A DNA stretch of 25,997 nucleotides. Source: a virus. Positions 1 through 25,997 of the stretch are shown piece by piece (position 1 is the stretch's first letter; each line of letters opens with the position of its first letter). The notes beneath the pieces are model-generated. The model saw nothing but the letters and a program-made list of their open reading frames with translations. It ran no database searches and was not told the origin of the DNA. The stretch lies in the IMG/VR virus record IMGVR_UViG_3300045988_065179, positions 1 through 25,997 of that record. The stretch is one strand, 5' to 3'. The translations under genes were made by a program, and so were the position numbers.

Positions 1-2
1 TA

Positions 3-203
3 GTTTTAATGTGTATAGCTGGAATTAGAGGATATAAAGCTTATAACGAGTATCAAACTAAAACATTTGAATTAAGATTAGAAAGAGCAGAATTAAAACA
101 TAAATTAGATTCAGTAATGTGGATTAATCCAGCAAGTGAAGAAGTATCTAATTTATATGAAGAATATTGTGATTTAACACTTAAAATTAATAATATAAAA
201 TAA
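3..203 (+). CDS. hypothetical protein, probably 5'-partial (frame open to the window edge)
   Basis: The frame is open from nt 3, the first ATG is at 9, and TAA is at 201-203. The stop overlaps the next start (TAATG). No family was recognised. Confidence 0.4.
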   Translation, partial: VLMCIAGIRGYKAYNEYQTKTFELRLERAELKHKLDSVMWINPASEEVSNLYEEYCDLTLKINNIK

Positions 204-640
204 TGAAAACAGATATAAGAAGCTTAGTCTTTACAAAGAATCTATTTAAAGAGAAATTTAATATAGACATAGAATGATGTAAAGACGATTACTCCAGATA
301 TGATGGAACATTTAATTGGAATGGAATTGATTATATAATTGAAGTTAAAAGGAGAAGATTTAATTCTAATAAATATCCAACCACTATTATTAATAGGGAT
401 AAATTTGATATGCTATCAAGAAATAATTCTATATTAGTAATAATATTTGATGATGGAGTATATATATTTAAAGATATAAAACAAGCCTTTATAAAGGATT
501 CTATGAAATATGGTTGTTCTACAACAGATTTTGGAGGAACTTATGGCTATTCATTAAAAACAGAGTTGTCTTTAAAGAAAGCCATTAAGATAGATGTAAA
601 TACAGAATTTAGTAATTATATAGCAAATGATAGCCTATAA
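203..640 (+). CDS. putative PD-(D/E)xK-fold nuclease-like protein (145 aa under code 4)
   Basis: ATG is at 203. One in-frame TGA (275-277) joins this start to the 410..640 track ORF in the same frame. The sequence 'YDG...DYIIEVKRR' resembles a D...ExK nuclease core. The stop is TAA. Confidence 0.5.
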
Positions 641-1121
641 AAGAATACTTAATTTTGAAAACTACCAAATTGGAACTGATGGCTCAATATGAAGTTTAAG
701 AGCATCAGTTCCAAAGAGGTTAAAACCTCAAGTAAAAACTAATGGGTACTTTACAGTAACATTATATAATAAAAATTTGAAAAAGAAGTGTTATATACAT
801 AGATTAGTAGCTGAAACTTTTATATCTAATCCGAATAACTATCCTTGTATAAATCATAAGGATGAAAATAAATCAAATAATAATGTAAGTAATTTAGAAT
901 GGTGTACTTATAATTATAATAATAATTATGGAACTCATAATCTGCGAGCTGGATATAGTCATAAGAAACCAATACTACAATTACTAAATGGAATAGTTAT
1001 TAAAAGATGGGATTCAGCAATAGATGCTGAGAGAGAACTAAATATACAATCTAGAAATATTGTAAAGGTTCTTAAAGGGCAGCGAAAAACAGCAGGAGGA
1101 TATATGTGAACATATGAGTAA
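627..1121 (+). CDS. free-standing HNH homing endonuclease (copy 1)
   Basis: The ATG at 627 overlaps the upstream gene. The N-terminus 'NFENYQIGTDGSIWSL' resembles NUMOD4, and 'HRLVAETF...INHKDENKSNNNVSNLEWCT' is an HNH core. In-frame TGAs lie at 690 and 1107. The C-terminus is 'GGYMWTYE' and the stop is TAA at 1119-1121. Confidence 0.85.
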
Positions 1122-1422
1122 TAACGAAATTGTAGAAAAGTACTATCCATTTATTATGGAACTTAAGCAAAAATTTGGTGCAGATGATGACTGTGTTCAA
1201 ATGATTTTTGTAGAAATACTAGAGTATTCAAATCCAAAATTAAATCAGCTTGATAGCAAAAATGAATTGAAATTTTGGATTACAAGATTATTTAAGAATT
1301 ATTGGTTTAGTAAAACAAGTAGATATTACTATACCTATAAGAAATATTATGAGATTGTTAAAGAACCACTTGAACAACAAAATGACGAATTGGAGGATTG
1401 ATTAAATGAAACGGAAGATTAA
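1114..1422 (+). CDS. ECF-type sigma factor, region-2-like half
   Basis: 'VEKYYPFIMELKQKFG..DDCVQMIFVEILEY' and 'KFWITRLFKNYWFSKTSR' resemble sigma-70 regions 2.1-2.4. The in-frame TGA at 1399 extends the ORF to TAA at 1420-1422. Confidence 0.5.
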
Positions 1423-2878: not shown

Positions 2879-3239
2879 ATATCTTTATGCAGCAAGATTA
2901 TTTAATAAAGGGTGGTCCAGAAATAAAGTAAGTGAGGAACTTCAAACTAAATATGGAGTTGGGCAAACTACTGCTGCTAAATATATTAGAGAAGCTTATA
3001 AGATTATTGCAGATAAAAATGATAATCTTATAAAGAATTTAAGACATATACAATTAACAAGATTGGAAACATTGTTGGATATTGCTATTAGTAAAAATGA
3101 TGTAAGATCTGCTACTGAGGTTATTAAAACAATAAATTCTATGTTTGGATTAAATCAACCAGAAATTCAAGTTAATATTCAAAATAATGAATGCCAATTT
3201 AAATTTGGAGATCCTATTATAAATGACAAGGATATATAA
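2787..3239 (+). CDS. terminase small subunit-like DNA-binding protein
   Basis: It lies directly upstream of terL and overlaps it. The N-terminus carries an AT-hook-like 'KKIGRPKK', followed by an HTH-like 'GWSRNKVSEELQTKYGVGQTTAAKYIREA'. Confidence 0.5.
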   Translation: MKVKNQELPKKIGRPKKEEVKEDQIDEQKTKYLYAARLFNKGWSRNKVSEELQTKYGVGQTTAAKYIREAYKIIADKNDNLIKNLRHIQLTRLETLLDIAISKNDVRSATEVIKTINSMFGLNQPEIQVNIQNNECQFKFGDPIINDKDI

Positions 3240-4470
3240 AGGATATAGGCCATTTATGTACCAATATAAGGTTCATATAGCTATGGCAGATGCTTATAGA
3301 TCTGGAAGGATATTTACAATTAAAGCTAAACGACAAGTAGGTAAATCTTTCTTAGCTGAAAATGAATTATTACGATTTGCAATTAACTATCCAAAAACAG
3401 TCAATTGTATAGTAGAACCTACTCTTGGGCAATCAAGAAAAGTGTTTAAAGAAATAGTTAATGCTATAGCTGAAGCAGATATTCTTAAACGTAAGAATGA
3501 AACTTTGCTTGAATTAGAGTTTAATAATGGCAGTTCTATATTATTTAGATCTGGAGAACAAATGGATTCGTTACGAGGATTCTCTGTAAGTGGATTACTT
3601 GTATTAGATGAGGCTGCTTACTTAAAAGATGAAGTATTTGAAATTATTAAACCTACTACTGATGTGTGGTCTGCTCCAATATTAATTATTAGTACTCCAA
3701 GGTTCCGAGAGGGTTTCTTTTATGACTGCTTTACTAAAGGGTTAGATCCGAAATATGACAAGTTCTATAAATCATTTGATTGAGCTTTAGAAGATACATC
3801 TATGCTTTTAGATAAAGAGAAGTTAGAGATGTATCGACTTACAACCTCAAAAAATAAATTTAGAACCGAATACTTAGGGGAATTTGCAGACGATGATGGA
3901 TGTTTATTTAATAATATAGCTAATTGCATAATTGAGAAAAAACCAGATTATCAGAGTCTTTATATAGGAATAGACTGGGCTACTGGGAGTGGTAAAGACT
4001 ATACTTGTGTTACTGCTTTAAATGAATCTGGGCAAATGGTCTTTATAAAGTATTTTAACGACAAAACTCCAACAGAGCAAGTTGATTTATTAACAAATAT
4101 ACTAACTGAGTATCAAGGATTTATAAAGATTGTGCAAGTTGAACAAAACTCAATTGGTAGCGTCTTCTATGATATGTTAGTTCAGAAGAATCCGAAAATC
4201 AGGATTATACGATTCTTAACTACTAATAAGAGTAAGGCAGATATAGTTAATAAGCTTCAAGCTGCTTTGGAGAATGAAAAGATAGGATTATTAAAAGATG
4301 ATAAACTTTTAAATGAGTTAAGACTATATGAAGCTTCATATAATCCAAAAACTGGAAATATTAGTTATAATGCTCCATCTGGATTTAATGATGATACAGT
4401 AATTTCATTAATGCTAGCCTATGACTCATTAAATACAAACAAAGGACATTATAATATTAAATTTAAATAG
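3223..4470 (+). CDS. terL: terminase large subunit (415 aa under code 4)
   Basis: Recognisable motifs are Walker A 'KAKRQVGKS', Walker B 'LLVLDEAAY', 'IISTP', and the nuclease motifs 'IGIDWATGSGKDYT' and 'GFNDD'. The track ORFs 3223..3783 and 3802..4470 share a frame and are separated only by the TGA at 3781. Confidence 0.9.
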
Positions 4471-4471: not shown

Positions 4472-5131
4472 ATGAATGTAGCAACTAAATGGGAAGAAGT
4501 ATCTTTAAAGAAATTCCAAGCTTTAAATGCATTTATTATGAGTAATGTAAAAATGACAGATTTAGATAGGAGTATCGAGATCTACTCATTACTTACAGAT
4601 AACCCAGATGAAGCAAGGGATGCTTTATTAAATATGACCGTAGATCAATTATCTGCAGAACTTAGTAAGATTCATTTTATTGTAAATAAATATAAATCCA
4701 AAGTTCCAGAAACTGAGTATGATATTGATGGTAATAAATATACAGTTCAATTAAATCTCAGAAATATGACTGCTGCTCAGTATATTGATTTTCAGAACTT
4801 TTATAAAGATTATGAAAAGAATCAGAAGTATATATTCTTATGCTTTTTAATTCCTAAAGGAAAGAAGTATAATGAGGGTTATGATGTAATGGAACTAGCA
4901 GAAGATTTATATGATAAGATTCCAATTACTATTGTTACTGATGTAATGGTTTTTTTTTGCAAATTATTAGAGAGCTTAACCATAGCTACCCTAATCTCTT
5001 CAATGCGGGAGATGAAGAAATTGATGAAAAAGGAGAAAGATCCAGTAAAGAAACATCAATTACGGAAGAGGATAGTTCAAGCGAGACAAACTCTGAATTT
5101 AGTCAAAAATGGAACTGGATTTGTTGAATAG
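4472..5131 (+). CDS. tail-assembly-chaperone-like protein, zero-frame (G-like) product
   Basis: This is a 219-aa ORF ending in TAG. It contains a U9 run with a correctly phased slippery heptamer and an open -1 frame downstream. The functional call rests on that architecture, so it is an inference. Confidence 0.5.
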   Translation: MNVATKWEEVSLKKFQALNAFIMSNVKMTDLDRSIEIYSLLTDNPDEARDALLNMTVDQLSAELSKIHFIVNKYKSKVPETEYDIDGNKYTVQLNLRNMTAAQYIDFQNFYKDYEKNQKYIFLCFLIPKGKKYNEGYDVMELAEDLYDKIPITIVTDVMVFFCKLLESLTIATLISSMREMKKLMKKEKDPVKKHQLRKRIVQARQTLNLVKNGTGFVE

Positions 5132-5274
5132 ACAGAGTTAGTGAAGTAACAAGGTTAAACTGGCATCAAGTATATGATATGCAGATTCAAGAGTTTTTGA
5201 ATATTATTTGCTACTTACTTGATAAAGGGAAAGAAGAAAAAAGACAAATAGATCTTTGAAAAGCTAAACACTAA
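4472..5274 (+). CDS. putative -1 frameshift (GT-like) fusion product, about 267 aa
   Basis: After slippage at 4951-4957, the -1 frame stays open from 4948 to TAA at 5272-5274 under code 4 (TGAs at 5125 and 5257). It encodes '...FSQKWNWICWIDRVSEVTRLNWHQVYDMQIQEFLNIICYLLDKG...'. Confidence 0.4.
4951..4957 (+). promoter_or_regulatory. U_UUU_UUU -1 slippery heptamer within a T9 run (4950-4958)
   Basis: The zero-frame codons are GTT TTT TTT TGC, so the heptamer has the canonical X_XXY_YYZ phase. Confidence 0.5.
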
Positions 5275-5309: not shown

Positions 5310-5325
5310 GAGTAAAAACTTGACA
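5310..5325 (+). promoter_or_regulatory. conserved intergenic motif GAGTAAAAACTTGACA, copy 1
   Basis: This 16-mer is identical to those at 14334 and 23171. It contains TTGACA and lies 70 nt upstream of the ATG at 5396. Confidence 0.5.
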
Positions 5326-5353: not shown

Positions 5354-5395
5354 GTGTTTAGATACTCAATATGAGAATGATATATTTTAGTAAAA

Positions 5396-5875
5396 ATGGC
5401 AAATCAAGTTTTGGATTTTCCCAATTTAGAAGCTGTCTTAAAACAATATGGAGAACAATTACTTTCTATATATAGGCAGAAATTACTACAAACTGGTTCA
5501 GATGATACGGGAACTCTTGGTAATACACTTAATTATATAGTTGAAGATCAAGATGAAGTATATGAAGTTAGTTTGCAAATACAAGATTATTGGAAGTATG
5601 TTGAGGATGGCAGAAATGCAGGAAAGTTTCCTCCTATCAGTGATATAAAAAGGTGAATACAAACTAAGCCTGTATTACCTCGTCCATATAATGGATTACT
5701 TCCAACTATTGATCAATTAGCATATTTAATAGCAAGAAAGATTTCCAAAAGAGGAATTGAAGGCAAACATATATTAGAGGAATCATTAACTGAATTAGAT
5801 GCTTATATGTTATTAGATGATGCAATTACAAAAGATTTAGAAACACAAGTTGATAATGTATTTAAAAACTTTTAA
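5396..5875 (+). CDS. virion morphogenesis/neck protein (possibly HK97 gp10-like)
   Basis: The 5396..5656 ORF continues through the TGA at 5654 to TAA at 5873-5875. 'YWKYVEDGRNAGKFPP' is weakly reminiscent of the gp10 family. Confidence 0.55.
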
Positions 5876-5877: not shown

Positions 5878-8058
5878 ATGGCATTTATACCAAGTAAATT
5901 AGGAATATATAATGCATCAAGGAGTTTTCCTGTTAAATGGAATAATCCTGGATGGGGAATTACTGGAGAATATGATTATTGGACTTGGGGAGATGATTAT
6001 ACTGAAGAAGGGCCTTTAGAGGTAACTATACAAGATCCAAGTAAAGAAGGATGTACAATACAATTTTTATCTCCTACAACAATAACTACTGATTCTTCTA
6101 CTGTATTTCATTTTTATCCTAGAGGCATTACTACTGCTTTATTAGAGGAAGATTTACCAATTAATTTACATAGTAAAGCTCCTGGATATTATCCTGCTAA
6201 TGGCACCATTAAAGTACCAAATACTGGTGGAGAATATACAGTAGAGTATATATTAAATAGATCAGATATTATTAAATGAAATGCAGCAGTTGTTAATGCT
6301 ACAGCTTTAGTTAATATGGAAGTTCTGGATTGGGATTCTTGCTCTATTAAGTTTAAATTCACAGTAAGAGCTAATACTCAATGGAATACAGATTTAACTG
6401 GAACTATCCAATTAGGAGCTTATTATGATACTAATAAATTTATTAGTTATAGTTATGGCTTTAAGATTGAAAAGAGTAATACTCCTGAAGATTTAAAGCT
6501 AGTAGTAACTCCTTCATCTGGAACTTATGGAGCATCTGCTTTTGTTACTGAAGAATTCCATTTAAGTACAACTAAAGCAGAAGAAACAATTACTTCATTT
6601 AATGTTACCTGCCCTCAAGCTAGTAATATTAAAAAGGATATTGTTGATAACTATTTTGTATTAACTGTTCCAGAGAATAAAACTACTAATAATTTGGAGT
6701 TTAGTGCAATGGTTACTGCAACAACTTCTGGAGGTTATACCCTTGAAGCTACAGTTCCAATTAAACAAGCTGCAACGTCTTTAGTGATTCCTAATACTAA
6801 TTATGAAGTAAGTTGAACTGCATCTACATTAAATATAATTGGTACAGGCTCAAACAACTTAGATGATGTTGTATTTAGCATTCCTGTAGGTTGGATTAGT
6901 GGTCAGAAGATAACTGTGAATCCTCAAGGTGTAGCAACTATTAGTTTGAACATTGCAGAAAATTCAGGATTATCTTCCAGAAAAGCAACTATTGGAGTAT
7001 CTGTTATAAAGAATAGTTCAAGTATTATTAATTTATCTATTAATATTACACAATCTGTTAAATCTGATATATCTCCTATTTGGAAAGATTATGTTTGGAA
7101 TGAGATAATCAGTTCAGATTTTATTGAATATCATCTAGATTATGCAGGAGATATGGTTTATGCTGGCAAGGCTTATAAATATCCAGAAACTGATAGAGTA
7201 GAGTTTCTATTAAATAATGTAGCTGAGAATTATCTATCTAATGGTATTATATTTAATACTTCTAAAACTATAATATCTCCAGAATATTTGAAACCATTTA
7301 CTTTGATAACATCTAGTGGAAATGAAAAACCAATTACTTTCTTCAATGACTGGAGTTATAAAGATAGAGATCTAACTAAAGGCACTATGTTAAGTGATCC
7401 TATTACTGGTTTAGTTGATCCAAGGCAGTATTTAGTATCAAGTTGAATTCTACCAACTGGAACTGGAGTTATTAATAGATTCTTTTATATAGATGGAGTA
7501 CAATCTGCTATGGATATTAGTTTAAATTCTGGAATTAATGGATATACATATACAGAAGATTTAAGTAATAAATTATGGTCTTGTGGAAGCTATTTAATAG
7601 TAGGATTTGTAGAAGGTGGAAATATTAGTGATAGACAGATTAGATATGATATAGATACTACAGGTAAAGATTATGTGTTGTATTATACTAATTCAGCAGG
7701 TGGATGAGATTCATTACTTGTTGAGGGTAATGTTAAAAAGAATGATGAGATTAAATCTGAAACATATACTCGTAAGGTATTAAATACATCACAAGAGTTT
7801 GCAAGAAATAAGTATTTGAATACTATAACTTCAAGCTGGGTTCTTTATACTGGTTATTTAAATGATATTCAAGCTTCTAAGATGTTTAATCTAATTGAGA
7901 GTACTAAAGTATATTTGCATAATCTTAAAGATAATACTATCACTCCAGTATTGATTACTGATACAAATTGCGAATATAAAACTTATACTAATCAAGGTAA
8001 AAACAAGTTCTATTATACAATTAATGTGGAAGCTTCTCAAGATACTTATCGTAAATAA
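5878..8058 (+). CDS. large tail structural protein (726 aa) with Ig/BACON-like repeats
   Basis: Five track ORFs (5878, 6316, 6916, 7510 and 7816) share one frame. They are joined by single TGAs at 6277, 6814, 7444 and 7705, and I checked every gap codon by codon. One BACON-like segment reads 'VNPQGVATISLNIAENSGLSSRKATIGVSV'. Confidence 0.75.
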
Positions 8059-8060: not shown

Positions 8061-8540
8061 ATGGAAGTATATAAAGACATTAAAGGATATGAGGGACTTT
8101 ACCAGATAAGTAATACTGGTAGAGTCTTCTCTATAAAAAACAATAAAGAACTGAAGAGTGGATATACTCCAGCTGGATATACAAAAGTTCAATTGTGAAA
8201 GAATAAGTCTGGCAAGTGATTCAATATTCATAGATTAGTTGCAGAAGCGTTTATTCCAAACGTAGAAAACTTACCACAAGTAAATCATATAAATGAGATA
8301 AAGGAGGATAATAGGGTTGATAATTTAGAATGATGTACAGCTCAATATAATGTTACTTATGGAAATAGATTAAATAATAATAAAAAACCTGTAATACAGG
8401 AAAGCTTAGATGGCACTTTTATAAAGAGATGAAATTCAATTGCTGATACTAAAAAATATGGGTTTGTTCCCCAAAATATAGGACAGTGTTGTATTGGTAA
8501 TATTTCACAACATAAAGGATATATTTGAAAATATGCGTAA
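8061..8540 (+). CDS. free-standing HNH homing endonuclease (copy 3)
   Basis: The protein reads '[25 protein letters not shown]...[11 protein letters not shown]...[17 protein letters not shown][TGA]CT'. All five Trp codons are TGA (8196, 8217, 8331, 8430, 8526). The standard-code track does not detect this gene. The stop is TAA at 8538-8540. Confidence 0.85.
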
Positions 8541-11500
8541 AAATATTAAATTATTTATTGCAGGAAAAGAAGTACATTGTTCTGAAGGCATATCATTACC
8601 AATGACTTATACTGTAGAAGATTTTCAGAATCCAACAATAGTAAAAAATTCATTCAGTAAGACTATAAGCATTCCAGGAGACAAAAACAATAATAAGATT
8701 TTTGGAGAGATTTATAAGTTAGATAGATTTCTCCATATAAAAGAAGGTAATTTCTCTGGAGTATATTTTGATCCTTCAAAACGAGTTGATTTTGGAATCT
8801 ATAATAATGACTATTTAGTTGAATCTGGATATATGCAATTAAATAGTATATCTATAAAACAAGCTATTATTACTTATAATATTACTTTATATGGAGGATT
8901 AGGAGATTTCTTTTATGGTCTTAAATATAAAGAAGATGGTACTATTAGGACTCTTGCTGATTTACAATACTTTGTAACTGATGAAGATGGGAATACACTT
9001 CCTGCTGATACTGAACTTAATTTTTATATTAACAAAGATTTTGTAAATACTTGTTTTGACTGAAGTAAAACGAATGAAGGAAGTCAAATATATGATTATT
9101 TGACATTTATTCCAGCATATAATGGTTTATATGAAGATTTTGATAATGAAACTTGTTTAATAAATACTAATGAAAATAGTATATTTCCTACTAGTAAGAC
9201 AGATTCAGGAGTTACATATACACCTTATAATGGATATGGATTAGCTAAATTAAATAGAGCATATACAGAATGGGAGATGAGAGATCTTAGAAGTTATATG
9301 CAGAGGCCAGCTTTAAAATTGAGTAAGTTAATTGAAACTATCTGTAGAAAAGAGAATTCTGGATATGATGTAGTATTTGATCCTTCATTTTTTAATTGAA
9401 ATAATCCGTATTGAAGTAAATCCTTTGTAGCTTTACCTTTATTATCTAATCTAGTAAGTGACGAAGAAGATGTAACAGAATCTGGCTTTTTAGTAGAAGA
9501 TAGTAAATATAATTATCAGGTAGGTATAAATAAAGGAGAATCTACATCAAGTCCTTTAAAATTATCCATTGCATCACCTGATATTGTTTACGATTCTGGA
9601 ATAATTGATTTAAGTGAGGCTGGATTTAGAAAAAGCCTTTCTACAACTTTTTATTTTAAGTTAAAGTTTAATCGAACTGCAGGAAATGTTGGGGATAGAT
9701 ATTTTTTTGGATTTAGAAGGTATTTTAGCTCCTCTGCTCCTCCTTTTTATTCAGCATATAGAGGATACGCTGATGTTTGGCTAACAATTACTAATGAAGT
9801 AGATGATACTATTTATACTTCTGAAATACATAGATTTACAAATTCAGGAACCTACTCACATCCTATAGCTAATGGGGTTAATCATTTTGGGTATTTTCAA
9901 AATAATGTATTTTATGATACTTCTTCATTAACTAATGATTTTGTTATTAATATTACAAATTTTAAAATTCCAATTAATAAAATTAAAATTAAACTTAATG
10001 TTGTATGATCTACTGGAAATAGTGTTCGCCCTACTGGATTATTAAGTGAAGTAATAGAAAGAGGAGAGGATTACCAAGCTATTCCAAAAGGAGATCTTAT
10101 AGTAGATCTTACTTCTCCCATTGAAATTACTACTTCTACAGAGGTACTTCAAAGTAATGCATTATTAACTAAAAAATTATTATTAAAAACAGAACAATCT
10201 CCTGCTGATTACTTATTGAGTTATGCAAAACTGTTTGGGTTATATTTTACAAAAGATGTTGATAGTAAAACAATTAGAATATATACTAGAAATAATTTCT
10301 TTAAGAATATAATCTCTGATTGGAGCAAGAGAATAGATTATTCTAAAGATTTCAATGTAAATCCAATATTATTTGATAAGAAGTGATATAGAATGAGTTC
10401 TGAAGGTCCAGAAACTTATTTTTATAAAAAATACAATAAGGAATATTCTATATTATATGGTCAACAAAGATTAAATACTGGTTATAATTTTAATTCTGAA
10501 ACAACTGAACTGTATAGTGATAATATATATGAAAATATAGTTTCTGCAAGATGGAGAAATAAATATTTTAGAAATTTTTACAATTCTTCTTCCCTTGTAG
10601 TTCCTGCATTTATGAATGATAATATTACCTATACATTATTTAATAATAGCACTACTGAACTTAAGACTATAGATCAAGAGTTATACGGAGCTAATTTTAT
10701 AGATCCCTCTAAAACCACAGAATGATATAAAATCGCAGGTAATGATATATTTGCCAAAAATGTATTTTTCTCAATTGATGGTAATGAGGAATCTTTAGAG
10801 GATATCTCTCAATCCCTAGTATTCTTTAACGGTAATGTTCCTTTAACTGATGTAAAAGGAAATGAAGTAACATATTGAATTACAGATGATCTTACAGAAA
10901 TGAACATATTAAATGATCAGGAAATGTGTTATATATCTACTAAAAGTGAGAAAGATATTAGGGGGAATAAAATTGCTATAAAGAGAACTGTATTACCTCA
11001 ATTTACAAGGTATACCGTTTCGTCCTCTAATGTTACTGCTTCTTGAGATTTTGGATTACCACAAGAGATTTATATTGATGATATAACTTATAATATCGGA
11101 AGTACTATTTATAGTAGATTCTGAAGTGAATTTTATAATGATCAATTTGATGTAAATACTAAAAAAGTTACCTGCTTTGTAAGATTGGATGATTTAGATG
11201 TTAAGTATGATTTACTTAGACAGTTCTATTATTTTGAAGATTCTTACTGGATACTTAATAAGATTGATGCTTATGATATTAATTCAGATTCTACAGTTAG
11301 ATGTGAATTTATTAAAGTTCAAGATATTAATAGTTATTTAGCTGGAGTTCAAAATCTAGGTGAATACATATCATTTGATGATTCAGATCCAGTTGTAGAT
11401 TATAAAGCTGGGACTAAAAAGATTACAGTTACTTCTAATATTCCTTGAGAATTAGGATGATATAGTCCAAATGAAATTGTAAGCGTTACACCTGAATCTG

Positions 11501-11892
11501 GGCAACCTGGAGAAACAGAATTAACAGTTACTTATAATGAGAATACTACATATAATCAAAGGAGTTTCTACTTTAGTCTTTATAAACAAGGAGGCATAGA
11601 TGGTCCTAAATGTATGTTTACTCAAACTCCAGACCCAAATAAAGCTGTTCTTATTACAGGAAAACTTCAAACTTCTACTGGAGGTATTCCTTCTGGTGTT
11701 AATCAGATTCTAACTGAAAACGATAACTTCTTGAATGTGGCTTATATGCAGGATAATGGAAATTATAGAATATATGCACAAAATGGAGTCCAGTTTAAAT
11801 TTGAAGTGACTGATGGACCAACAGGAACAGTTAAATATACAGAGAATTTAACACTAACAGAAGATACTGTTAAAAACGTAACTATAAACTAA
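8533..11892 (+). CDS. very large tail/baseplate structural protein (1119 aa) with a C-terminal BACON-like domain
   Basis: A single frame runs from ATG 8533 to TAA at 11890-11892. It contains 11 in-frame TGAs: 9061, 9397, 9412, 10006, 10384, 10723, 10876, 11044, 11122, 11446 and 11458. I found no in-frame TAA or TAG when checking line by line. The C-terminal region reads 'WELGWYSPNEIVSVTPESGQPGETELTVTYNENTTYNQRSFYFSL'. Confidence 0.75.
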
Positions 11893-15022: not shown

Positions 15023-15028
15023 TTAATT

Positions 15029-15640: not shown

Positions 15641-15661
15641 TTTATAAAATTTTAAATAATT

Positions 15662-16567
15662 ATGGCAAATAGTCCTGTAATGACAACGCTTCCTGCTTAT
15701 GTGGAGCAAAGACGTCTCCCTCTTATTAAGGAAGCGGTTTTAAAAGCTAAGAGTGCAAGTTTATTTAATCTTCAGACAGATATTAAAACTGATGCTGCTC
15801 TTAACCTGTTATCTACCGATGTTCAGTTCGGTGATGGTCTTACTTGTGGTTGGGATGAGGCTGGAACTCAGACTCTTTCTCAGAGAATTCTTAAGACTGG
15901 TAATATTAAGATTAATATGGCATATTGCGATAAGGCTATGCTGAAATACTGGACTCAGTATGCAGTTAAGGTAGCCGCTGGTCAGAAGACACTTCCTTTT
16001 GAAGAGGATTTCGTAAATGCTGTTGTAGAGAACGTAAAAGAGGCTATTGAGGTAGCTATCTGGCAGGGTGATACGGCTTCAAAAACTAATAACTTGAAGT
16101 ATTTTGATGGTCTGCTTAAGATTCTTGCTGATGATGCTGGTACTGTAGATGTAGAAATTGCTGGAACATCTGCCTATACTGACATTATGGCAGTTTATAA
16201 TGCAATTCCTGAGAAGGTTCTTGATGGTGCTTCGATTCTTGTTGGTGCCGATATGTTCCGTAAGTTCGTAAATGAACTTGTTGAGAAGAACTATTTCCAC
16301 TATAGCGGAGAGAGCCTTAATGGTGAGATTTATCTTCCTGGTTCACAGGTTAAGGTTATTGCTGTTAATGGTCTTAATGGAACTGATAAGATTGTTGCTG
16401 GTCAGTTAGACAAGAACTTCTTCTATGGTGTAGATATGATGAACGATGAAGAGAAATTCGAATTGTGGTATTCACAGGATTTCCGCGAGTTCAGATTAGC
16501 TATTGAATTTAACGCTGGTGTACAAGTTGCTTTCCCTGATGAAGTAGTATTAGGTGCCAAGGCTTAA
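15662..16567 (+). CDS. major capsid protein (HK97-fold type)
   Basis: This is a 301-aa ORF in the canonical position. Its sequence is typical of capsid proteins paired with XkdF-like proteases. It has the highest G+C and the most distinct codon usage in the window. All four Trp codons are TGG. Confidence 0.8.
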   Translation: MANSPVMTTLPAYVEQRRLPLIKEAVLKAKSASLFNLQTDIKTDAALNLLSTDVQFGDGLTCGWDEAGTQTLSQRILKTGNIKINMAYCDKAMLKYWTQYAVKVAAGQKTLPFEEDFVNAVVENVKEAIEVAIWQGDTASKTNNLKYFDGLLKILADDAGTVDVEIAGTSAYTDIMAVYNAIPEKVLDGASILVGADMFRKFVNELVEKNYFHYSGESLNGEIYLPGSQVKVIAVNGLNGTDKIVAGQLDKNFFYGVDMMNDEEKFELWYSQDFREFRLAIEFNAGVQVAFPDEVVLGAKA

Positions 16568-16607
16568 TTTCAATAGATTTTATTAACTTATAAATGATAT
16601 TGAAATT

Positions 16608-17132
16608 ATGGCTTGTTTAATAACTATCGCAGGAATCACACTTGATTGCCAACCTTCATTGGGTGGAATCAAACAGGTATGGATTACCCAGTATGCAGAT
16701 GTTAAAAGTGTAACGGTTGATCCTGAGAGCAATATGATTTCAGCTATTACTCTTGAGTCTTCAGCTAAATGGTATAACTACCAATTTAGAAAGGCTACTG
16801 GTTCTCTAACCTCAACTTTAAATGTAGATGAAAGTGCTGGTGTTAATTATGTAAGTAATGAGCTTGCTCTTGTATTTACAAAGATGGAAACAGCAAAACG
16901 AGTAGAGATTGCAGCTTTATCAATTGGTCAGCTTGCAGTTGTTGTTGAAGATAGCAATGGTAAGTATTGGTTCTTAGGTAAAGATGATTATGTAAGCGCT
17001 TCCGCTGGTACGGGTGTTACTGGTACTGCTAAAGGTGATCAGAATGCTTATACTCTGACACTTTCAACAGATTCAGATTCTTATCCTTATGAGTTATCTG
17101 CAGAAGCTATCCAAAGCGTTGTAGGTGCTTAA
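16608..17132 (+). CDS. abundant virion protein, possibly the major tail tube protein
   Basis: This is a 174-aa ORF. 'VVVEDSNGKYWFLGKDD...TGTAKGDQNAYTLTL' resembles tail tube proteins. It is TGA-free, with three TGG Trp codons, and a strong terminator follows it. Confidence 0.55.
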   Translation: MACLITIAGITLDCQPSLGGIKQVWITQYADVKSVTVDPESNMISAITLESSAKWYNYQFRKATGSLTSTLNVDESAGVNYVSNELALVFTKMETAKRVEIAALSIGQLAVVVEDSNGKYWFLGKDDYVSASAGTGVTGTAKGDQNAYTLTLSTDSDSYPYELSAEAIQSVVGA

Positions 17133-17223: not shown

Positions 17224-18345
17224 ATGGCAATAGTATTCACATCAGAACCAGTAGCTAAAAATACTACAACTAAAAATTTAGATTTAATTAAAGCTGCTGA
17301 ATGTAAGTTACAAGAAAAATCAGTAGAATATACTCAAAATGCAGAGTTTGAAGTACTGCCAGATGAGGGATATGATGGAATGTCTAAGGTAAATGTATCA
17401 GTTGATGTGGCAGTTCCAACAGTTCAAAATAATAAAGATGCTTCTATTACTTCTAATGGCACTATTGAGATTCTTCCAGATAGTGACTATGATGTTATGG
17501 AGAAGGTAACTGCTACTGTAAATATTCCATTACAAGATAAGCACATTTCAATAGACAAAAATGTATCAATGACAGAAATAACTCCTGATGAAGGATATTC
17601 TGGTTTATCAAGAGTTGAAGTCGATGTAGAAATACCAGTTGAGGATAATAAACAGGTTACTATTACTGAAAATGGAACTACTACTATCATTCCTGGAGAT
17701 GGATATGATTATATAGAGATGTGTGACGTAATTGTTAATGTTCCTACATATAATATAGAAGATAATGTTACTAGAAGTGTTTTTTTAAGCTCAGATGGAT
17801 CTCAACAATATACTCCTTCATCAGGTTATGATGCAATGAAGAAACTAACATTACAAGTTTATATACAATATAGTATTGATAATCCAGGAGTAAGTTTAGC
17901 ATATTATCAACAGAATAATGTCCCTGATAATATTATATGATGGGAATCATTAACTGATGGGAGTTATAAATGTGCTTCTTCAGAATTAAAAACATTTGAT
18001 AAAACATTATCTTCATTAAATATAGGATCAAATATGTTCTTATTTTGTTCAAGTTTAGAAACCTTTTCGTCTGATTTAAGTGCATTGACTGAAGCAGAGA
18101 ATATGTTTGGTAGTTGTTTTAATATTAAAGATATTACATTAACTGGAACATTAGATGTTGATTTAGATTTAGCAGGCACTAATAGTACTAGAATAACAGT
18201 AGATTCATTAATGTCAGTAATAAATGCATTAGTAGATTTAACAGGGCAAGTAGAAAAAACACAAACAATTGGATCTGCAAATCTTGCAAAACTAACAGAT
18301 GAACAAAAAGCAATTGCAACTAATAAAAATTGGATATTAGCATAA
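17224..18345 (+). CDS. receptor-binding/tail fibre protein paralog 1 (373 aa): tandem PDxGYD repeats plus a BspA-like LRR C-terminal domain
   Basis: The 17224 and 18034 ORFs are joined by the TGA at 17938 (TGA followed by TGG, giving WW). The C-terminus '...LTDEQKAIATNKNWILA' is shared with paralogs 2 and 3. Confidence 0.7.
17311..17865 (+). repeat. five tandem 36-41-aa coding repeats (consensus ..T.NG...I.PD.GYDGM.KV.V.V.)
   Basis: The repeat cores are 'VLPDEGYDGMSKVNVSVDV', 'ILPDSDYDVMEKVTATVNI', 'ITPDEGYSGLSRVEVDVEI', 'IIPGDGYDYIEMCDVIVNV' and 'YTPSSGYDAMKKLTLQVYI'. Confidence 0.75.
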
Positions 18346-20750: not shown

Positions 20751-21872
20751 ATGAATATTAGAGATGATTTAAAAACATTTTATGTAGGTGACAGACAAGG
20801 TACTGCTATTTATGTCGGCAGTACCAAAGTCTGGCCTATCAATCCTTGTAATCCACAGATGGTTACAGTTGCTAATCCAGTTCCTCAAGGTACTACAATA
20901 GTTGATTCTTGCAGTTATGTATTTAGCAGTTATGATGGAACTGCAGATGATATACAAAGGGATTGAATGGGTAGAGGATCTGGTTCTAATTCTACAGTAA
21001 TTAGCTTCACTGCTGATTTAAGTGAATTAGCCCTTAATATAGATGGTGTACCTCTTTGTAGTATTATAGGTTCTGCTCAAACATATGCAGATGTAAAGTT
21101 AAATAGTGGAGATTTAAGTAGAAAAGGAGGGTTTTTTAACACATCTCATTTTGATCTAAATAACCAGGAGATTACTAATCTTAATGAAGCATATGGAAGA
21201 TGGTCTAGTGAATCTCAATTTTGGGGTCAAACAATACATAGTGCTACTTTATCTAATGTTAAAATACCTACAACTACTAAAGAAGTAAGTGCAAATTATT
21301 TATTTATTGGAGTAAAAATAGATAATAATGATTTCTCTGTAATGAATAATTTTCAAAATCTTGTATTAGTAGATCCAAAATGGGCATTTGCAGATACAGC
21401 TGATGGAGCTACTAATATAGATAATATAACGATTAATATTCCCTTTAAAGGAGATTGTAATCATATGTTTCATAGAGCATTATATCTAACAACTATTCCA
21501 AGTAATTTTACCTTTACTGGAATTACAGATATAAGCTATATGTTTAGTACTTGTAGTAGATTAACAGCTACACCAGAAATAGATTGTCATCTTGTTACAG
21601 ATTGTACTAGTTTTGCTGCAAATTGTCCAGAATTAGTTACTGTAGGAGCTTTAAATGGATTAGGAGAGAGTTTAACTAAAGGAGGAATTCTTTATTTTGC
21701 ACAATCTCCAAATCTATCTACGGATTCATTACAAACTATAGCAGAATCTATTGGCACAGCAGTAGCTTCTTATACAAGTATATCATTAAAATCTACTGCA
21801 TATGATAAACTTACAAATGAACAGAAATCATTAATAGCTTCAAAGAATTGAAGTATAAATCGAGTTGCATAA
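20751..21872 (+). CDS. receptor-binding protein paralog 2 (373 aa), BspA-like LRR type
   Basis: The 20751 and 20967 ORFs are joined by the TGA at 20964. The TGA at 21849 extends the C-terminus to '...LTNEQKSLIASKN[W]SINRVA', ending in TAA at 21870-21872. Confidence 0.7.
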
Positions 21873-22113: not shown

Positions 22114-23136
22114 ATGATTATACTTAAGAATACTAAAAATACACAAACTTTCTATGTTAGTAAGAAATGTGGTATTGAATCTGGACAACTTCCTGTTGGT
22201 TCTTATACTAAGATTGAAGCAGATGAAAGATTCCAACCTAAAGGTGTTGCTGTATCAGATTCCGATACCTTTAGAAGCTATGCAGATAAGATAGGACAGA
22301 TTTCTGGAGGTGGTGGAGGAAAGATTAATTTAAATGATTATGGATTAACATTTGCACATTCTAGTATGACACAAGAGCAATATAATAATATAGAATATTC
22401 TCTTCCAGATAATATAAATTATTGATTTGATGGGACTAATTTCATATCTACAATAGATATATCAAGTCATATTGATCTGTCTAAAGTATATAACGCATCA
22501 TATGCCTTCCAAAACACATATAATATATATATTGATAATATAAGAACTAGTGTTGGGGATTCGTATGCATTTTCTGGATTTCAAGGCACACTAAATAATT
22601 TAGAATTAATTAATACCTTATCCTCTAGTTGAAATTATGCAGCAAGAACATTCTTTAATGCTTCTAATTTACCAACTACTTTAAAAGTGATAAATGAAGT
22701 TGATACTGGTGTATCAGCTTTACAATTTTTCTTTTATTCTGTTAGCAGTAATGTTCCTGAAATTGAAGTTATTAATGGACAACTATCTTTATATAATTAC
22801 TTTAGTTCATATAATGAGGGTGTTACAACAGTAGGAAAAATTAAATTAAATAATTGCACATTAACAGGAGATCTAAATAAAACTTCAATATGTGCATCTA
22901 CTAATACTATTGTTACTTATTTTGGGGGTGTTGAAGGAGCTGATAAAAGTATGAATTTAGCAAATTTTAGAGCACTAAATAGTCAATCAGTAACTGATAT
23001 TATTACAAATGTTAGTGATTTAACTGGAAAGGATACCAAAACTTTAACTTTTTATACTAACATTTATAATGCACTTACTGAAGAACAGAAATCATTAGCT
23101 ACATCTAAAAACTGAACTTTAGCAAGTTCAAACTAA
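22114..23136 (+). CDS. receptor-binding protein paralog 3 (340 aa), LRR-like
   Basis: The 22114 and 22687 ORFs are joined through TGAs at 22423 and 22630. The TGA at 23113 extends the C-terminus to '...LTEEQKSLATSKN[W]TLASSN', ending in TAA at 23134-23136. Confidence 0.7.
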
Positions 23137-23170: not shown

Positions 23171-23186
23171 GAGTAAAAACTTGACA
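23171..23186 (+). promoter_or_regulatory. conserved intergenic motif GAGTAAAAACTTGACA, copy 4
   Basis: This is the identical 16-mer, ending 93 nt upstream of the ATG at 23280. Confidence 0.5.
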
Positions 23187-23279: not shown

Positions 23280-23858
23280 ATGCAAAGTGGAACAATTTAT
23301 AAAATAACTAATTTAATAAACAATAAGATTTATATTGGAAAAACTACCAGAGATATTAAACGTAGGTTCATTGAGCATAAACTGAAAGCAAAATCTGGTT
23401 TGGATTATCATTTAAGTCGAGCTATTAGAAAATATGGAGATAAAAATTTTATTATCGAAACTATACAGGTATTTTGTTGTACCTCAGAAAGTTTATTAAA
23501 TAGAAAATTAGATGAAGCTGAAAAGAAATATATTAATTTATTTAATTCTAAAATAAATGGATATAATATGACAGATGGAGGAGATGGTGGATTTGGACAT
23601 ATAATAACTGAGGAAACGAGAAAAAGATTGTCTGAAGCAAAAAGAGGAGAAAAGAATCCAAATTACGGCAAACATACTAGTAATTATTGTAGATCTGGAG
23701 AATTTCATCCTCTATATGGAAAATCAAGAAGTGAGGAATGTAAACAAGCTATGAAAGAAGCTTGAAAGACTAGGCCAAATCCCAAATATAAATATATTCT
23801 CAGATACTCTTTAGATGGAAAACTAATTAAAAAATATATTTGAAAATATGAATTATAG
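23280..23858 (+). CDS. free-standing GIY-YIG homing endonuclease (copy 1)
   Basis: 'GTIYKITNLINNKIYIGKT' is the GIY-YIG motif, with NUMOD3-like 'GEKNPNYGKH' and 'HPLYGKS'. In-frame TGAs lie at 23763 and 23841. The C-terminus is 'KKYIWKYEL' and the stop is TAG at 23856-23858. Confidence 0.85.
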
Positions 23859-24240
23859 TCTTGTTCTTCAGCATACTGTAACAAAACAAATTTATACATT
23901 TAATCTTGAAAATCAGAATTATTCTGAGAATATCTACTATAAGTTTGATATTACACTTCAAGAAGGAATGAGAGACGGTGAATATCAATATATTTTATTT
24001 ACTAATCCAAATAAATTTCAAGTTATAGTTGATGTAAACAATCCATTTAGATCAGAGTTATATGGCAATCCAGTTATTCTGGTTACATATAATAATACTC
24101 TTACTAATGGTACTCAGATATTAGTTGCTGGTAAACCAATACCTATATTGGGAACAGGATTAATAAGAATTGGAGATTATGAGAATAATAATTATCAATA
24201 CGACAAACCTAATACATACGTAAGTTATGAGCGAAAATAA
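23848..24240 (+). CDS. hypothetical protein (130 aa)
   Basis: This is an intact ORF whose start is embedded in the 3' end of the GIY-YIG gene. Its end overlaps the portal gene start. No family was recognised. Confidence 0.55.
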   Translation: MNYSLVLQHTVTKQIYTFNLENQNYSENIYYKFDITLQEGMRDGEYQYILFTNPNKFQVIVDVNNPFRSELYGNPVILVTYNNTLTNGTQILVAGKPIPILGTGLIRIGDYENNNYQYDKPNTYVSYERK

Positions 24241-25318
24241 AACAAAAGTTCAGTTAAGTGCTATTGATCCATTTATTGCAAGTAATATCGTATTACCTAC
24301 AGAAACTAAAGTGAGGGGAAAAGATTATGTAATGTGGGGAGAAGATAACAAATATCCATTATATCTATGGGATTTATATTTAAATGTTGCCACTCTCCAA
24401 TCTATTATTAATGGTTCTGCTGACTTTATTGTTGGTAACGATGTTAAATGTAATGCTCCAGGATTTGAAGTAGTTGTAAACAAGAAAGGTGAAACAATAG
24501 TTGATATAATGAGAAAAATCACTATTGATAAGATGATATTTGGAGGTTATGCTATCCAAGTAATTAGAGATATGCTCGGAAGAGTTGCAGAGATCTATCA
24601 TATTGATTTTATGAATGTAAGGTCAAGCGAAAAGAATGATATATTATATTATGCAACTGATTGGACAGCTTGGTCTGTAAAAGCTATAAAATATCCAAAA
24701 TTTGGAGCTGGGGATGAAAATCCAGCTAGTATATTTTATAATAAAGGTTATATAACAAGAGGAGTATATCCTATTCCTGTTTATGGAGCTGCTATTTTAT
24801 CTTGTGAAACTGAGAAAAATATTAATGAATTCCATTTAAATAACATCAATAATGGATTTATGGGTAATCTTATTATTAACTTTAATAATGGGGAACCTAC
24901 AGATGAAATTAGAGAGGAGATTGAGAGGAATATTAATGAGAAGTTCTCTGGTTATCAGAATGCTGGCAGAATATTGATTTCATATAATGCAGATGAGGCA
25001 AATAAGACTACTATTGAAAGATTAGATTCTGATGATTTTGATGAGAAATATCAATCATTATCTGAGAGAACCAGAGATCAAATATTCTGTGCCTTCAGAG
25101 CTAATCCTTCGTTGTTCGGTTTAAACTATAGCTCAGGATTTAATGAAAATGAGTTTAATGAAGCATTTAAGCTATATAATCGTACTTTTGTACGCCCAAT
25201 ACAATCAGAAATTTGTGACTCATTTGATAAAATCTTCGGCATTAAGAATAGTATTACTATTGAACCATTTAGTTTAACTCCAAAAGGAATGTCAGACAAT
25301 GCAGAAAATGTTGAATAA
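24227..25318 (+). CDS. portal protein (PBSX/Phage_portal-like, 363 aa)
   Basis: The length and the sequences 'WGEDNKYPLYLWDL...LQSIINGSADFIVG' and 'SLSERTRDQIFCAFRANPSLFGL' are typical of the small portal family. There is no TGA; all four Trp codons are TGG. Confidence 0.7.
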   Translation: MSENKTKVQLSAIDPFIASNIVLPTETKVRGKDYVMWGEDNKYPLYLWDLYLNVATLQSIINGSADFIVGNDVKCNAPGFEVVVNKKGETIVDIMRKITIDKMIFGGYAIQVIRDMLGRVAEIYHIDFMNVRSSEKNDILYYATDWTAWSVKAIKYPKFGAGDENPASIFYNKGYITRGVYPIPVYGAAILSCETEKNINEFHLNNINNGFMGNLIINFNNGEPTDEIREEIERNINEKFSGYQNAGRILISYNADEANKTTIERLDSDDFDEKYQSLSERTRDQIFCAFRANPSLFGLNYSSGFNENEFNEAFKLYNRTFVRPIQSEICDSFDKIFGIKNSITIEPFSLTPKGMSDNAENVE

Positions 25319-25961
25319 TTATACAGTGTACTGCCATAAGAATATAGCTGATAATAAATTATATTTTGGAATAACATCACTTACTTTAAATAATAGATGG
25401 GGAACTAAAGGTCAAGGTTACAAGAATAATCTTTATTTTAGCAGAGCAATTAAAAAATATGGTTGAGATAATTTTGAGCATATTATAATTAGAGATAATC
25501 TTCCAGAAGCTTGTGCTAAGACTTTAGAAAAGATTCTGATTTATAAGTATAATACTAGAAATCCAAAATATGGGTATAATTTAACTGATGGAGGAGACGG
25601 TACTTGTGGATATTCTTTTTCACAAGATTATAAAGATAGTCTTAGAATTATAAGATCAGGAGAAAATAACTCATTTTATGGTAAACAGCATTCAGATGAA
25701 AGCAAGCGTAAAATGAGGGAGGCAAGATTAGGCAAAACTCCTTGAAATAAAGGTATGAAACTCTCAGATAAAGAAAAACAACTAATTTCAGAACGTCAGT
25801 GCAAAAAAGTATATAAGTATGATTTAGATGGTAATTTTATTTGTGAGTATAAATCAGCTAAGGAAGCTGGAGAGAAGAATAATGTAGATTCTTCTAGTAT
25901 ATCTAGATCTTGTAGAAAAAATAAACCCTGCAAAAATTATAAATATTATTATGGAATATAG
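25308..25961 (+). CDS. free-standing GIY-YIG homing endonuclease (copy 2, 217 aa)
   Basis: The ATG at 25308 lies inside the end of the portal gene. The protein has 'YTVYCHKNIADNKLYFGIT', 'YGYNLTDGGDG', NUMOD3-like 'NSFYGKQHSDESK' and 'GKTP[W]NKG', and a C-terminal HTH-like region. In-frame TGAs lie at 25464 and 25743. The stop is TAG. Confidence 0.85.
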
Positions 25962-25997
25962 AAATGTACTATTAATATCTGAAGATTATATAAAATC
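25951..25997 (+). CDS. 3'-truncated ORF starting inside the end of the GIY-YIG gene
   Basis: From ATG 25951 the frame ('MEYRNVLLISEDYIK...') stays open to the window edge. It has the same embedded-start layout as the genes downstream of the other endonuclease genes. Confidence 0.3.
   Translation, partial: MEYRNVLLISEDYIK

Follow-up and report, generated by a model that had tools for sequence, protein, structure and literature searches.

A tRNA-less human gut phage with TGA reassigned to tryptophan and with TGA-free helicase and head genes

Phages with a recoded TGA are well documented (Ivanova 2014; Yutin 2021; Borges 2021/22). By description and gut origin, the phage studied here is like the small Garnet, Amethyst and Topaz clades (22–34 kb) and the TGA-recoded Agate and Jade phages of Borges et al. 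(10.1101/2021.08.26.457843). In that work, as in ours, TGA was assigned to Trp from alignments with the stops masked as X; code 11, code 15 and code 4 were mixed within one clade; close relatives used the standard code; and many code-4 genomes had no detectable suppressor tRNA. The hosts predicted there are standard-code Bacteroidota or Firmicutes, and a replication gene there lacked recoded stops, which lysis genes carried; the helicase and lysis genes of this phage resemble that pattern, its head genes and small early-looking genes do not. A TGA suppressor tRNA was found in just 35% of the code-4 genomes of Borges et al. and in 15% of those of Cook et al. (PMC11210395). Machinery of their own for the code change is thus not strictly a defining trait of recoded phages, since it is seen in 15–35% of code-4 phages. 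Unlike the Jade phages, which have a code-change operon, the present genome has no tRNA, RF1 or tryptophanyl-tRNA synthetase (TrpRS).

In crAss-like phages, either TGA is reassigned to Trp or TAG to Gln (Yutin et al. 2021, PMC7886860). They share with this phage an association with Bacteroidota, the gut habitat, low GC, the lack of Shine-Dalgarno sites and the reading of opal as Trp. However, theirs are podovirus-like genomes of about 90–190 kb that encode an RNA polymerase and, as a rule, suppressor tRNAs, whereas this phage has 31 kb and a tape-measure-like protein; no match to cultured crAss-like phages was found by DNA megablast, with the capsid-like protein or with the portal. Phages of Mycoplasma and Spiroplasma also read TGA as Trp and need no phage tRNA. 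Their hosts are wall-less, whereas this phage keeps a peptidoglycan peptidase and has relatives in Bacteroidota genomes; no DNA, capsid or portal match to these phages was found. In the code-25 phages of Absconditabacteria and Gracilibacteria TGA is likewise a sense codon, which needs no suppressor tRNA as the host shares the code, but the amino acid is Gly and not Trp. In the work of Peters et al. (PMC9523058), validation at the protein level covered code 15 alone. To these known systems we add a tRNA-less genome, a mixed-code clade, clues to the host, and helicase and head genes free of TGA.

The stretch of DNA analysed (the window, 25,997 nt) is the first 26 kb of a circularly permuted phage genome of about 31 kb from the human gut, whose sequence is an ENA metagenome scaffold. 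It is a compact tailed phage with about 40 genes, and a near-identical complete genome has 31,105 nt. The phage occurs very often in human gut metagenomes, its portal protein being indexed in 118 blocks of the collection. Our curated set for the window had 30 genes and 8412 codons.

TGA is a sense codon for Trp in this genome and only TAA and TAG terminate, that is, the genome uses genetic code 4. There were 45 in-frame TGA sites in 17 of the 30 genes, and two more in an overlapping ORF (4957–5274). A preliminary description, made from the window alone, had stated that every break between gene fragments under the standard code is a single TGA, and its coordinates proved correct (3781 in the terminase gene, four in 5878–8058, eleven in 8533–11892 and two in 11894–14236). 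No gene had an in-frame TAA or TAG. The tightly packed genes ended in TAA (24) or TAG (6), in agreement with that description; this is partly true by construction, but standard-code relatives do have TGA stops, in 3 of 20 and 1 of 12 genes. When TGA was treated as sense, ORFs of at least 80 aa covered 95.9% of the window instead of 72.7% and the longest ORF grew from 727 to 1132 aa, whereas reading through TAG raised the coverage merely to 74.7%. The density of TGA was 0.53% in frame and 3.35% in the two other frames. With curated starts, the Trp codons were 45 TGA and 52 TGG, so that Trp would make up 1.15% of the residues, a normal content. In the collection, the genes of this contig had already been called with TGA read through, while public gene calls on short contigs of the same phage (L002) were fragmented at it.

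The sites are spread over genes of several kinds, all on the + strand. Among the small genes at the left end, a hypothetical 145-aa protein (203–640) has TGA at 275, where 26 relatives have TGA and 2 have TGG. A hypothetical 102-aa protein (1114–1422), which could be a sigma-like factor's N-terminal half, has it at 1399 (TGA in 24 relatives, TAT in 4), and a protein like HTH_50 or sigma70 region 4 (1406–1660) at 1508 (TGA in 22, TGG in 6). A 112-aa membrane protein (2115–2453) has three, at 2208, 2247 and 2289, where standard-code relatives have W, F or Y; under code 11 this region has no ORF of 50 aa or more.

Three HNH/NUMOD homing endonucleases provide an internal comparison. Copy 1 (627–1121), with Pfam matches to HNH_3 and I-HmuI_NUMOD-like, has TGA at 690 and 1107. 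Copy 2 (1645–2130), also identified with Pfam, has TGA at 1771, 1906 and 2116. Copy 3 (8061–8540) has TGA at 8196, 8217, 8331, 8430 and 8526, and no ORF of 50 aa or more remains on its strand under code 11. As the preliminary description had noticed, the W of the NLEW motif is TGG in copy 1 (900) and TGA in copies 2 (1906) and 3 (8331), and copies 1 and 3 write the W of KRW as TGG and TGA (8430), respectively. Relatives are evenly divided at 1906 (TGA 13, TGG 13), and the standard-code relative L034 has W there. The solved structure of I-HmuI (PDB 1u3e) has W where copy 3 has TGA in NLEXCT.

In the gene for the large terminase, terL (3223–4470), the TGA at 3781 encodes residue 187, within the Pfam domain Terminase_6N (residues 37–231); W187 is invariant in alignment with standard-code relatives. 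The conserved ORF at 4957–5274, with TGA at 5125 and 5257, overlaps the 3′ end of 4472–5131 in the −1 frame and might be a frameshift extension of it. A 159-aa protein of the structural module (5396–5875) has TGA at 5654, a site that is W in all six TGA-non-recoding relatives with the gene (five standard-code and the TAG-recoded L038) and TGA (6) or TGG (16) in code-4 relatives. TGAs at 5372 and 5378 are not coding, as they precede the gene's true start, the ATG at 5396. A 726-aa tail- or baseplate-like protein (5878–8058) has TGA at 6277, 6814, 7444 and 7705; four standard-code relatives have W at its residue 610. The largest number, eleven, is in a 1119-aa tail protein (8533–11892; 9061, 9397, 9412, 10006, 10384, 10723, 10876, 11044, 11122, 11446 and 11458). 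Its residues 877 and 795 are W in 116 and 99 of 120 database homologues, respectively. A 780-aa tape-measure-like protein (11894–14236) has TGA at 12533 and 12662.

Further downstream are three tail fibre or receptor-binding proteins, the first (17224–18345; LRR_5-like C-terminus) with TGA at 17938, the second (20751–21872) with TGA at 20964 and 21849, and the third (22114–23136) with TGA at 22423, 22630 and 23113. Two other codon exchanges that had been described earlier hold as well. The C-terminal KNW of these proteins is written with TGG at 18331 and with TGA at 21849 (TGA in 7 relatives, TGG in 4) and 23113, and WW pairs are written TGG-TGA (2286–2291) and TGA-TGG (17938–17943). A GIY-YIG/NUMOD3 homing endonuclease (23280–23858) has TGA at 23763 and 23841, and a GIY-YIG/NUMOD3-like endonuclease (25299–25961) at 25464 and 25743.

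The reassignment had been described as window-wide. This goes too far, as 13 of the 30 genes have none and the head genes avoid TGA wholly. Of the 24 genes with any Trp codon, 17 carry TGA. TGA accounts for 46% of Trp codons, as compared with 71–89% A-ending codons in other purine-ending codon pairs, and its share is heterogeneous among genes (p ~0.01). The head block (14429–17132; S78-type protease, scaffold-like, 301-aa major-capsid-like and 174-aa proteins) has nine TGG and no TGA, and the portal gene (24227–25318; Pfam Phage_portal) has four TGG and no TGA. Taken together, these genes have TGA at 0 of 13 Trp codons, while the remaining genes have it at 45 of 84 (Fisher p = 1.5e-4). Their other A/G-ending codon pairs are 63% A-ending.

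The same pattern was seen in the relatives. Over 12–15 related genomes the head block had 0 TGA and 118 TGG, with no TGA in the genes for the major capsid protein (48 TGG), the protease (27 TGG) or the 174-aa protein (36 TGG). The early gene for the SF2 helicase, which lies beyond the window and on the other strand, had 0 TGA and 114 TGG, so that TGA occurred at 0 of 225 Trp codons in helicase and head genes together. The portal had 8 TGA and 52 TGG across 15 relatives. TGA is present in terminase, tail, lysis and homing-endonuclease genes, and also in the small early-looking genes (203–2453) and one small ORF of the helicase operon, which does not fit a clean split into early standard-code and late recoded genes. 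The strictly TGA-free capsid, scaffold and protease genes differ from the phages of Borges et al., where recoded structural genes are stressed; as the head genes are late genes, this is the opposite of the structural enrichment emphasised there. The TGA-free genes may form a set that must stay translatable under the standard code. Alternatively, TGA decoding may be costly and avoided by highly expressed genes. The avoidance in helicase and head genes agrees with either model. One relative that was recoded at TAG independently spares its capsid, scaffold and connector-like genes in a similar way, a hint that the rule may be general.

The phage belongs to a clade with genomes of about 30 kb and with code-11 (L034, L035, L037, L039, L041), TAG-recoded (L038, L042) and TGA-recoded members. 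One of them, L041, is a standard-code prophage in an Alistipes chromosome, where the adjoining purT encodes a protein identical (100%) to one of Alistipes sp.; another relative sits in a second standard-code chromosome. Among cultured phages, the portal matched Bacteroidota phages only. The sole organism-named helicase homologue is in a chromosome of Hymenobacter, also of the Bacteroidota, and a further homologue is in a TAG-recoded prophage adjoining a Phage_int_SAM_5-type integrase. Shine-Dalgarno sites were no commoner across the clade than at random positions. An M15_3 peptidoglycan peptidase is conserved with its zinc-binding, active-site motif SxHxxGxAxD intact. For this exact lineage, neither an integrated copy nor a CRISPR match nor an isolate was found. 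Because of the prophage relative in Alistipes, the lack of Shine-Dalgarno sites and the peptidoglycan peptidase, the host is most likely a standard-code, peptidoglycan-bearing member of the Bacteroidota, and the phage would be one of the "alternatively coded" phages of the gut that Borges et al. described.

The preliminary description had pointed to the rest of the genome as a possible source of a tRNA with anticodon UCA or of a factor interfering with RF2. The complete genome yielded no tRNA and nothing like a release factor. ARAGORN, with default and relaxed settings, detected no tRNA in the window, the 31,105-nt genome or about 20 relatives; a search of the whole genome with all Rfam models at E ≤ 5 gave no tRNA match; and no release-factor or deaminase motif and no TrpRS was found in the whole genome. 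Since these are lacking and an essential tail protein has eleven TGAs, the decoding of TGA must presumably be efficient and supplied in trans. It could come from the host cell, from a co-resident element or from an unrecognised phage factor. That this is a code-4 gut phage with a standard-code Bacteroidota host and with TGA decoded in trans is, in our judgement, probable. More tentatively, and as one possibility among several, such a host might support efficient decoding of TGA as Trp, without a suppressor tRNA of the phage, by an undescribed route. Candidates would be a small phage protein that either disables RF2 or re-tools the tRNA-Trp of the host, or an obligate dependence on a suppressor from another resident element.

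Alternatively, TGA might be a Trp codon of the host itself, as in Mycoplasma and Spiroplasma, in which case neither a switch nor a phage factor would be needed. This would be the simplest mechanical solution because there is no tRNA and up to eleven TGAs occur in a gene: recoding machinery is absent from the complete genome, eleven sites in one essential gene demand near-complete decoding, and early-looking genes are among the 17 with TGA. In addition, the code-4 phages of GenBank have for the most part Mycoplasma or Spiroplasma as hosts (PMC11210395). However, the intact peptidase argues against a wall-less host; the relatives are in Alistipes and other standard-code chromosomes; the portal matches and the named helicase homologue are all from Bacteroidota; and searches with DNA, capsid and portal gave no match to cultured Mollicutes phages. 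In the human gut, where we know of no common code-4 bacterium, the phage is found very often. TGA is used less than the AT bias would predict and is missing from helicase and head genes. We therefore regard a code-4 host as unlikely.

As to the amino acid, the preliminary description had favoured Trp over Gly and selenocysteine. Four independent lines, from domains spanning TGA, codon exchanges, masked alignments and the I-HmuI structure, support this assignment, as judged from sequence comparison. In 33 related code-4 genomes, TGA and TGG exchange freely at homologous sites: relatives had TGA (464), TGG (108), Tyr (18), Phe (8) or Gly (3) at window TGA sites, and TGA 82 times at window TGG sites. 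When TGA was masked as X and the proteins were searched against seven TGA-non-recoding relatives (six standard-code and one TAG-recoded), the masked sites were W in 38 of 98 cases, Y in 11, F in 9 and G in 2. Genuine TGG sites gave a matching profile in the same relatives (W in 58 of 131, Y in 20, F in 16, G in 2). In a BLOSUM-based likelihood comparison, Trp led Tyr by 74 log units and Gly by 188. Reading TGA as Gly, as in code 25, has in its favour that samples from gut and mouth contain code-25 phages (Borges et al., 10.1101/2021.08.26.457843) and that terL residue 187 is aligned with Gly in L036, the most distant relative. Among the relatives that do not recode TGA, Gly stood at 2 of 98 sites, and among close relatives at 3 of 647; with a likelihood 188 units worse as well, this reading is effectively refuted.

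Finally, there might be no reassignment, with the TGAs being true stops of a decayed genome, mistakes of assembly, codons for selenocysteine or sites of leaky read-through. Nothing more specific speaks for this than the use of UGA in read-through contexts and for selenocysteine. It is refuted by conservation: identical in-frame TGAs recur in over 30 assemblies made independently from different samples, TGA and TGG exchange there, and domains extend across the TGAs. The sites number 45, and no Rfam match to a SECIS element or tRNA-Sec was obtained. C directly after TGA, the leakiest read-through context, occurs in 1 of 45 cases, so leaky contexts are not being selected, and read-through of a few percent per site could not yield a protein with eleven TGAs.

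Annotation under the standard code, about which the preliminary description had warned, breaks 17 of the 30 genes and leaves some, HNH copy 3 and the membrane protein at 2115 among them, wholly undetected. If TGA is indeed decoded by an undescribed route in a standard-code host, then helicase, capsid, scaffold and protease would be the set translated under the unmodified code. Decoding without a suppressor tRNA concerns 65–85% of the code-4 phage genomes in the literature (Borges et al.; Cook et al., PMC11210395). Because it is small and tRNA-less and has relatives living in Bacteroidota, this code-4 phage, common in the gut, offers a simple system for stop-codon decoding of this kind.

The in-frame TGA codons noticed in this phage were confirmed, and all coordinates in the preliminary description were correct on recheck. 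When TGA was read as sense, coverage of the window by open reading frames (ORFs) of at least 80 amino acids rose from 72.7% to 95.9%; reading TAG as sense gave only 74.7%. The 30 genes end, as described, in TAA (24 genes) or TAG (6 genes), and none contains either triplet in frame. With curated starts, they carry 45 in-frame TGA and 52 TGG codons, together 1.15% of codons, a normal tryptophan content. TGAs at 5372 and 5378 precede the true start at 5396 and were therefore left out of this count. In the coding frame, TGA is six times less frequent than in the other two. The expected loss of genes under the standard code was also seen: HNH copy 3 (8061-8540) and the membrane protein at 2115 have no ORF of at least 50 amino acids under code 11. 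In the public collection, the gene calls for the contig already treated TGA as sense, giving products of 726, 1119 and 780 amino acids, and a 7-kb contig of the same phage, called with code 11, was fragmented.

Two further TGAs are in a conserved ORF at 4957-5274, which overlaps the 3′ end of the gene at 4472-5131 in the -1 frame. This ORF, including its tryptophan sites, is conserved in standard-code relatives, and the homology starts just 3′ of C AAA AAT at 5104-5110. Judging from the sequence, a programmed -1 frameshift may join the two (4472-5274) into a C-terminally extended protein.

The assignment of TGA to tryptophan is supported. In the terminase gene terL (3223-4470), the ATPase domain model matches without a break across the TGA. 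The exchange of TGA and TGG, first noticed among paralogs within the window, was also seen across 36 related loci from independent assemblies, of which 33 belong to the code-4 lineage of this phage and three to more distant relatives with the standard code. At window TGA sites, these carried TGA 464 times, TGG 108 times, and codons for Tyr 18, Phe 8 and Gly 3 times; at window TGG sites, they carried TGA 82 times. In addition, with TGA positions masked as X, we searched seven relatives in which TGA is not a sense codon, six with the standard code and one that is TAG-recoded (L038). The residue opposite a masked TGA was Trp in 38 of 98 cases, followed by Tyr (11), Phe (9), Leu (8) and Gly (2). 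Opposite genuine TGG in the same relatives, it was Trp in 58 of 131 cases, then Tyr (20), Phe (16), Leu (8) and Gly (2). A BLOSUM62-based likelihood placed Trp 74 log units above Tyr and 188 above Gly. Nearly all relatives had Trp at residue 187 of terL, residue 101 of the product of the gene at 5396, residue 610 of the tail protein at 5878-8058, and residues 795 and 877 of the tail protein at 8533-11892. In the solved structure of I-HmuI, NLRWVT aligned with NLEXCT of HNH copy 3.

Selenocysteine at the TGA sites and genome decay as the source of in-frame TGAs were both excluded. Translation of TGA as glycine (code 25) was excluded by both the residue counts and the likelihood. A C after TGA is the leakiest context. 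Here the following base was C at only 1 of 45 sites, with no preference, and leaky termination was therefore rejected as the decoding route. One protein contains eleven TGAs, beyond what low-level read-through could supply, so an efficient decoder must be present in the infected cell.

The window (25,997 bases, GC 29.7%) is the first part of an ENA metagenome scaffold of 31,166 nt (CHAT13-1_SAMEA1965149_METAG-scaffold_1189). In the public collection, 118 blocks index its portal protein (24227-25318), mostly on contigs of ~31 kb whose orientation and cut point vary. A phage genome that is complete, circularly permuted and frequent in metagenomes would be expected to look like this; from their study-style sample labels, the metagenomes are apparently of human gut. 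The phage is abundant, for instance, in the sample behind ERZ505314 NODE_67, at a coverage of ~324x. The plus strand carries every gene of the window. Pfam detected a large terminase, portal, S78-type prohead protease and tail-tip domain, together with three HNH/NUMOD endonucleases (627-1121, 1645-2130 and 8061-8540) and two GIY-YIG/NUMOD3 endonucleases (23280-23858 and 25299-25961). The remaining 5 kb, outside the window, encode DUF6712, an M15_3 peptidoglycan peptidase and, on the opposite strand, a 572-amino-acid protein and three small ORFs. The window DNA had no megablast match among GenBank phages, the capsid-like protein had no tblastn match, and PHROGs gave no annotation for any of ten unknown proteins.

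The presence of the five homing-endonuclease genes in these 26 kb differs among otherwise near-identical genomes. The three HNH genes and the GIY-YIG gene at 23280-23858 encode a C-terminal GYxWxY-like motif in which the W codon is TGA; in three of the four, this TGA is 7 nt upstream of the ATG of the next gene. The start of the window cuts a gene, and 9-203 is the 3′ part of its 79-amino-acid ORF. In related contigs, the N-terminus of this ORF (MKFPITRQEGFKDCGAACLSMIIKYYKG) is similar to the cysteine motif found N-terminally in C39 bacteriocin-processing peptidases, and a strong AGGAGG lies upstream, unlike nearly all other genes of the phage.

The plus strand has three exact copies of a 16-mer, GAGTAAAAACTTGACA (5310-5325, 14334-14349 and 23171-23186), each in a main intergenic gap and 3′ of a T-rich run. 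A GC-rich hairpin directly follows two of these copies. A fourth copy with one mismatch is intergenic in a related genome (L012, 16726-16743), 5′ of the ORF that crosses the window start, and the 16-mer is conserved in code-4 relatives. With its TTGACA -35-like core, it resembles a promoter or regulatory unit specific to the phage. A search of the window for the Bacteroidetes-type promoter pattern TTTG...TAnnTTTG found none, and a generic sigma-70 promoter scan gave no enrichment over shuffles. Two overlapping small ORFs at 1114-1660 (102 and 84 amino acids) are conserved across the clade, and the second matches HTH_50 and sigma-70 region 4. Together they may represent a split or frameshifted sigma-like factor, which possibly acts on the repeated 16-mer.

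Neither a tRNA nor a release-factor-related gene, both raised in the preliminary description, was detected. ARAGORN detected no tRNA, whether in the window, in a near-identical complete genome of 31,105 nt or in ~20 relatives; the hits that appeared at relaxed thresholds were all spurious, with intron-like gaps as long as ~1.9 kb. A permissive scan with all Rfam models detected nothing tRNA-like and no ribozyme. The protein motif scan revealed no signature of a release factor or of a cytidine deaminase. The only large early protein free of TGA is the 572-amino-acid protein, whose predicted structure (pLDDT 83.7) is that of a generic SF2 helicase with a C-terminal extension. Because this model matched only generic SF2 helicases, including DEAD-box, Mfd and Snf2 families, no translation-specific role could be assigned. 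Candidates for genes that only code-4 members would carry are the small ORFs beside the helicase gene and those at 9-640.

TGA makes up 46% of the tryptophan codons; other purine-ending codon pairs are 71-89% A-ending. Its use differs among genes (permutation p ~0.01). In the head genes (14429-17132; S78-type protease, scaffold-like protein, 301-amino-acid major-capsid-like protein and 174-amino-acid protein) and the portal gene, 0 of 13 tryptophan codons were TGA, versus 45 of 84 elsewhere (Fisher p = 1.5e-4); other A/G codon pairs in these genes are 63% A-ending. Across related genomes, no TGA was seen in the genes for the helicase (114 TGG), the capsid-like protein (48), the protease (27) or the 174-amino-acid head protein (36). 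In the independently TAG-recoded L038, TAG is similarly missing from the capsid, scaffold and connector-like genes. The pattern is more specific than the literature's rule that late genes are recoded, and suggests that decoding TGA has a cost, that certain genes have to remain translatable under the standard code, or that the head module was exchanged recently.

GC content is 34-38% in the head-gene block (14500-17000) versus ~28-30% elsewhere. Protein identity among relatives is 97-100% for the capsid-like and 174-amino-acid proteins, 78-90% for the protease and scaffold, and 30-80% for other genes, which would fit either strong constraint or recent module exchange. Just downstream of the helicase gene, outside the window, a 53-amino-acid ORF on the minus strand (L012, 14717-14878) has a single tryptophan codon; all 23 related genomes examined have TGA there, and in no other gene is TGA fixed.

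Host clues from across the clade point to Bacteroidota. One relative that uses code 11 (L041, GC 28%) is integrated as a prophage at a 3′ tRNA fragment, next to purT in 60%-GC DNA; in a homology search, the product of this purT gene showed 100% identity to a protein of Alistipes sp. A Hymenobacter chromosome contains a helicase homologue, and among cultured phages the portal matched only Nonlabens and Bacteroides phages. Shine-Dalgarno sequences are no commoner upstream of genes than at random positions, both in this phage and in its standard-code relatives. The M15_3 peptidase is retained with its SxHxxGxAxD zinc-binding motif, which argues against a wall-less Mollicutes host. On these clues, a standard-code Bacteroidota host is favoured, with good confidence, over a native code-4 host. 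Close relatives were all on contigs of at most 31 kb; for this lineage, neither an integrated nor a CRISPR-linked copy turned up. In GTDB genomes, a terL-alignment scan found nothing, and with the capsid-like protein as query the only hits were two phage contigs, binned under 'Azospirillum sp. CAG:239' and 'Bacteroidaceae'. These are weak evidence on the host, since phage contigs often end up in the wrong bin.

The wider clade includes two TAG-recoded members, L038 on a Bacteroidaceae-bin contig and the prophage L042 (7000-21740, GC 32%). L042 carries a helicase homologue and lies in a contig of a standard-code host (GC 39%), adjacent to a tRNA-Thr gene and an integrase of the Phage_int_SAM_5 type. 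The 21.7 kb examined contained no suppressor tRNA.

Opal-to-tryptophan recoding in gut phages was reportedly described by Ivanova et al. in 2014. Yutin et al. 2021 (PMC7886860) described it too, as did Borges et al. (10.1101/2021.08.26.457843), who found small clades of 22-34 kb and also clades in which codes 11, 15 and 4 occur side by side. Suppressor tRNAs were present in only 35% of code-4 genomes in that study and in 15% in Cook et al. (PMC11210395). Proteomic validation was for code 15 only (Peters et al., PMC9523058). As such phages are already published, the present one belongs to a known kind and its novelty is low. The interest that remains is in decoding without a phage-encoded tRNA and in the strict avoidance of TGA in the helicase and head genes.
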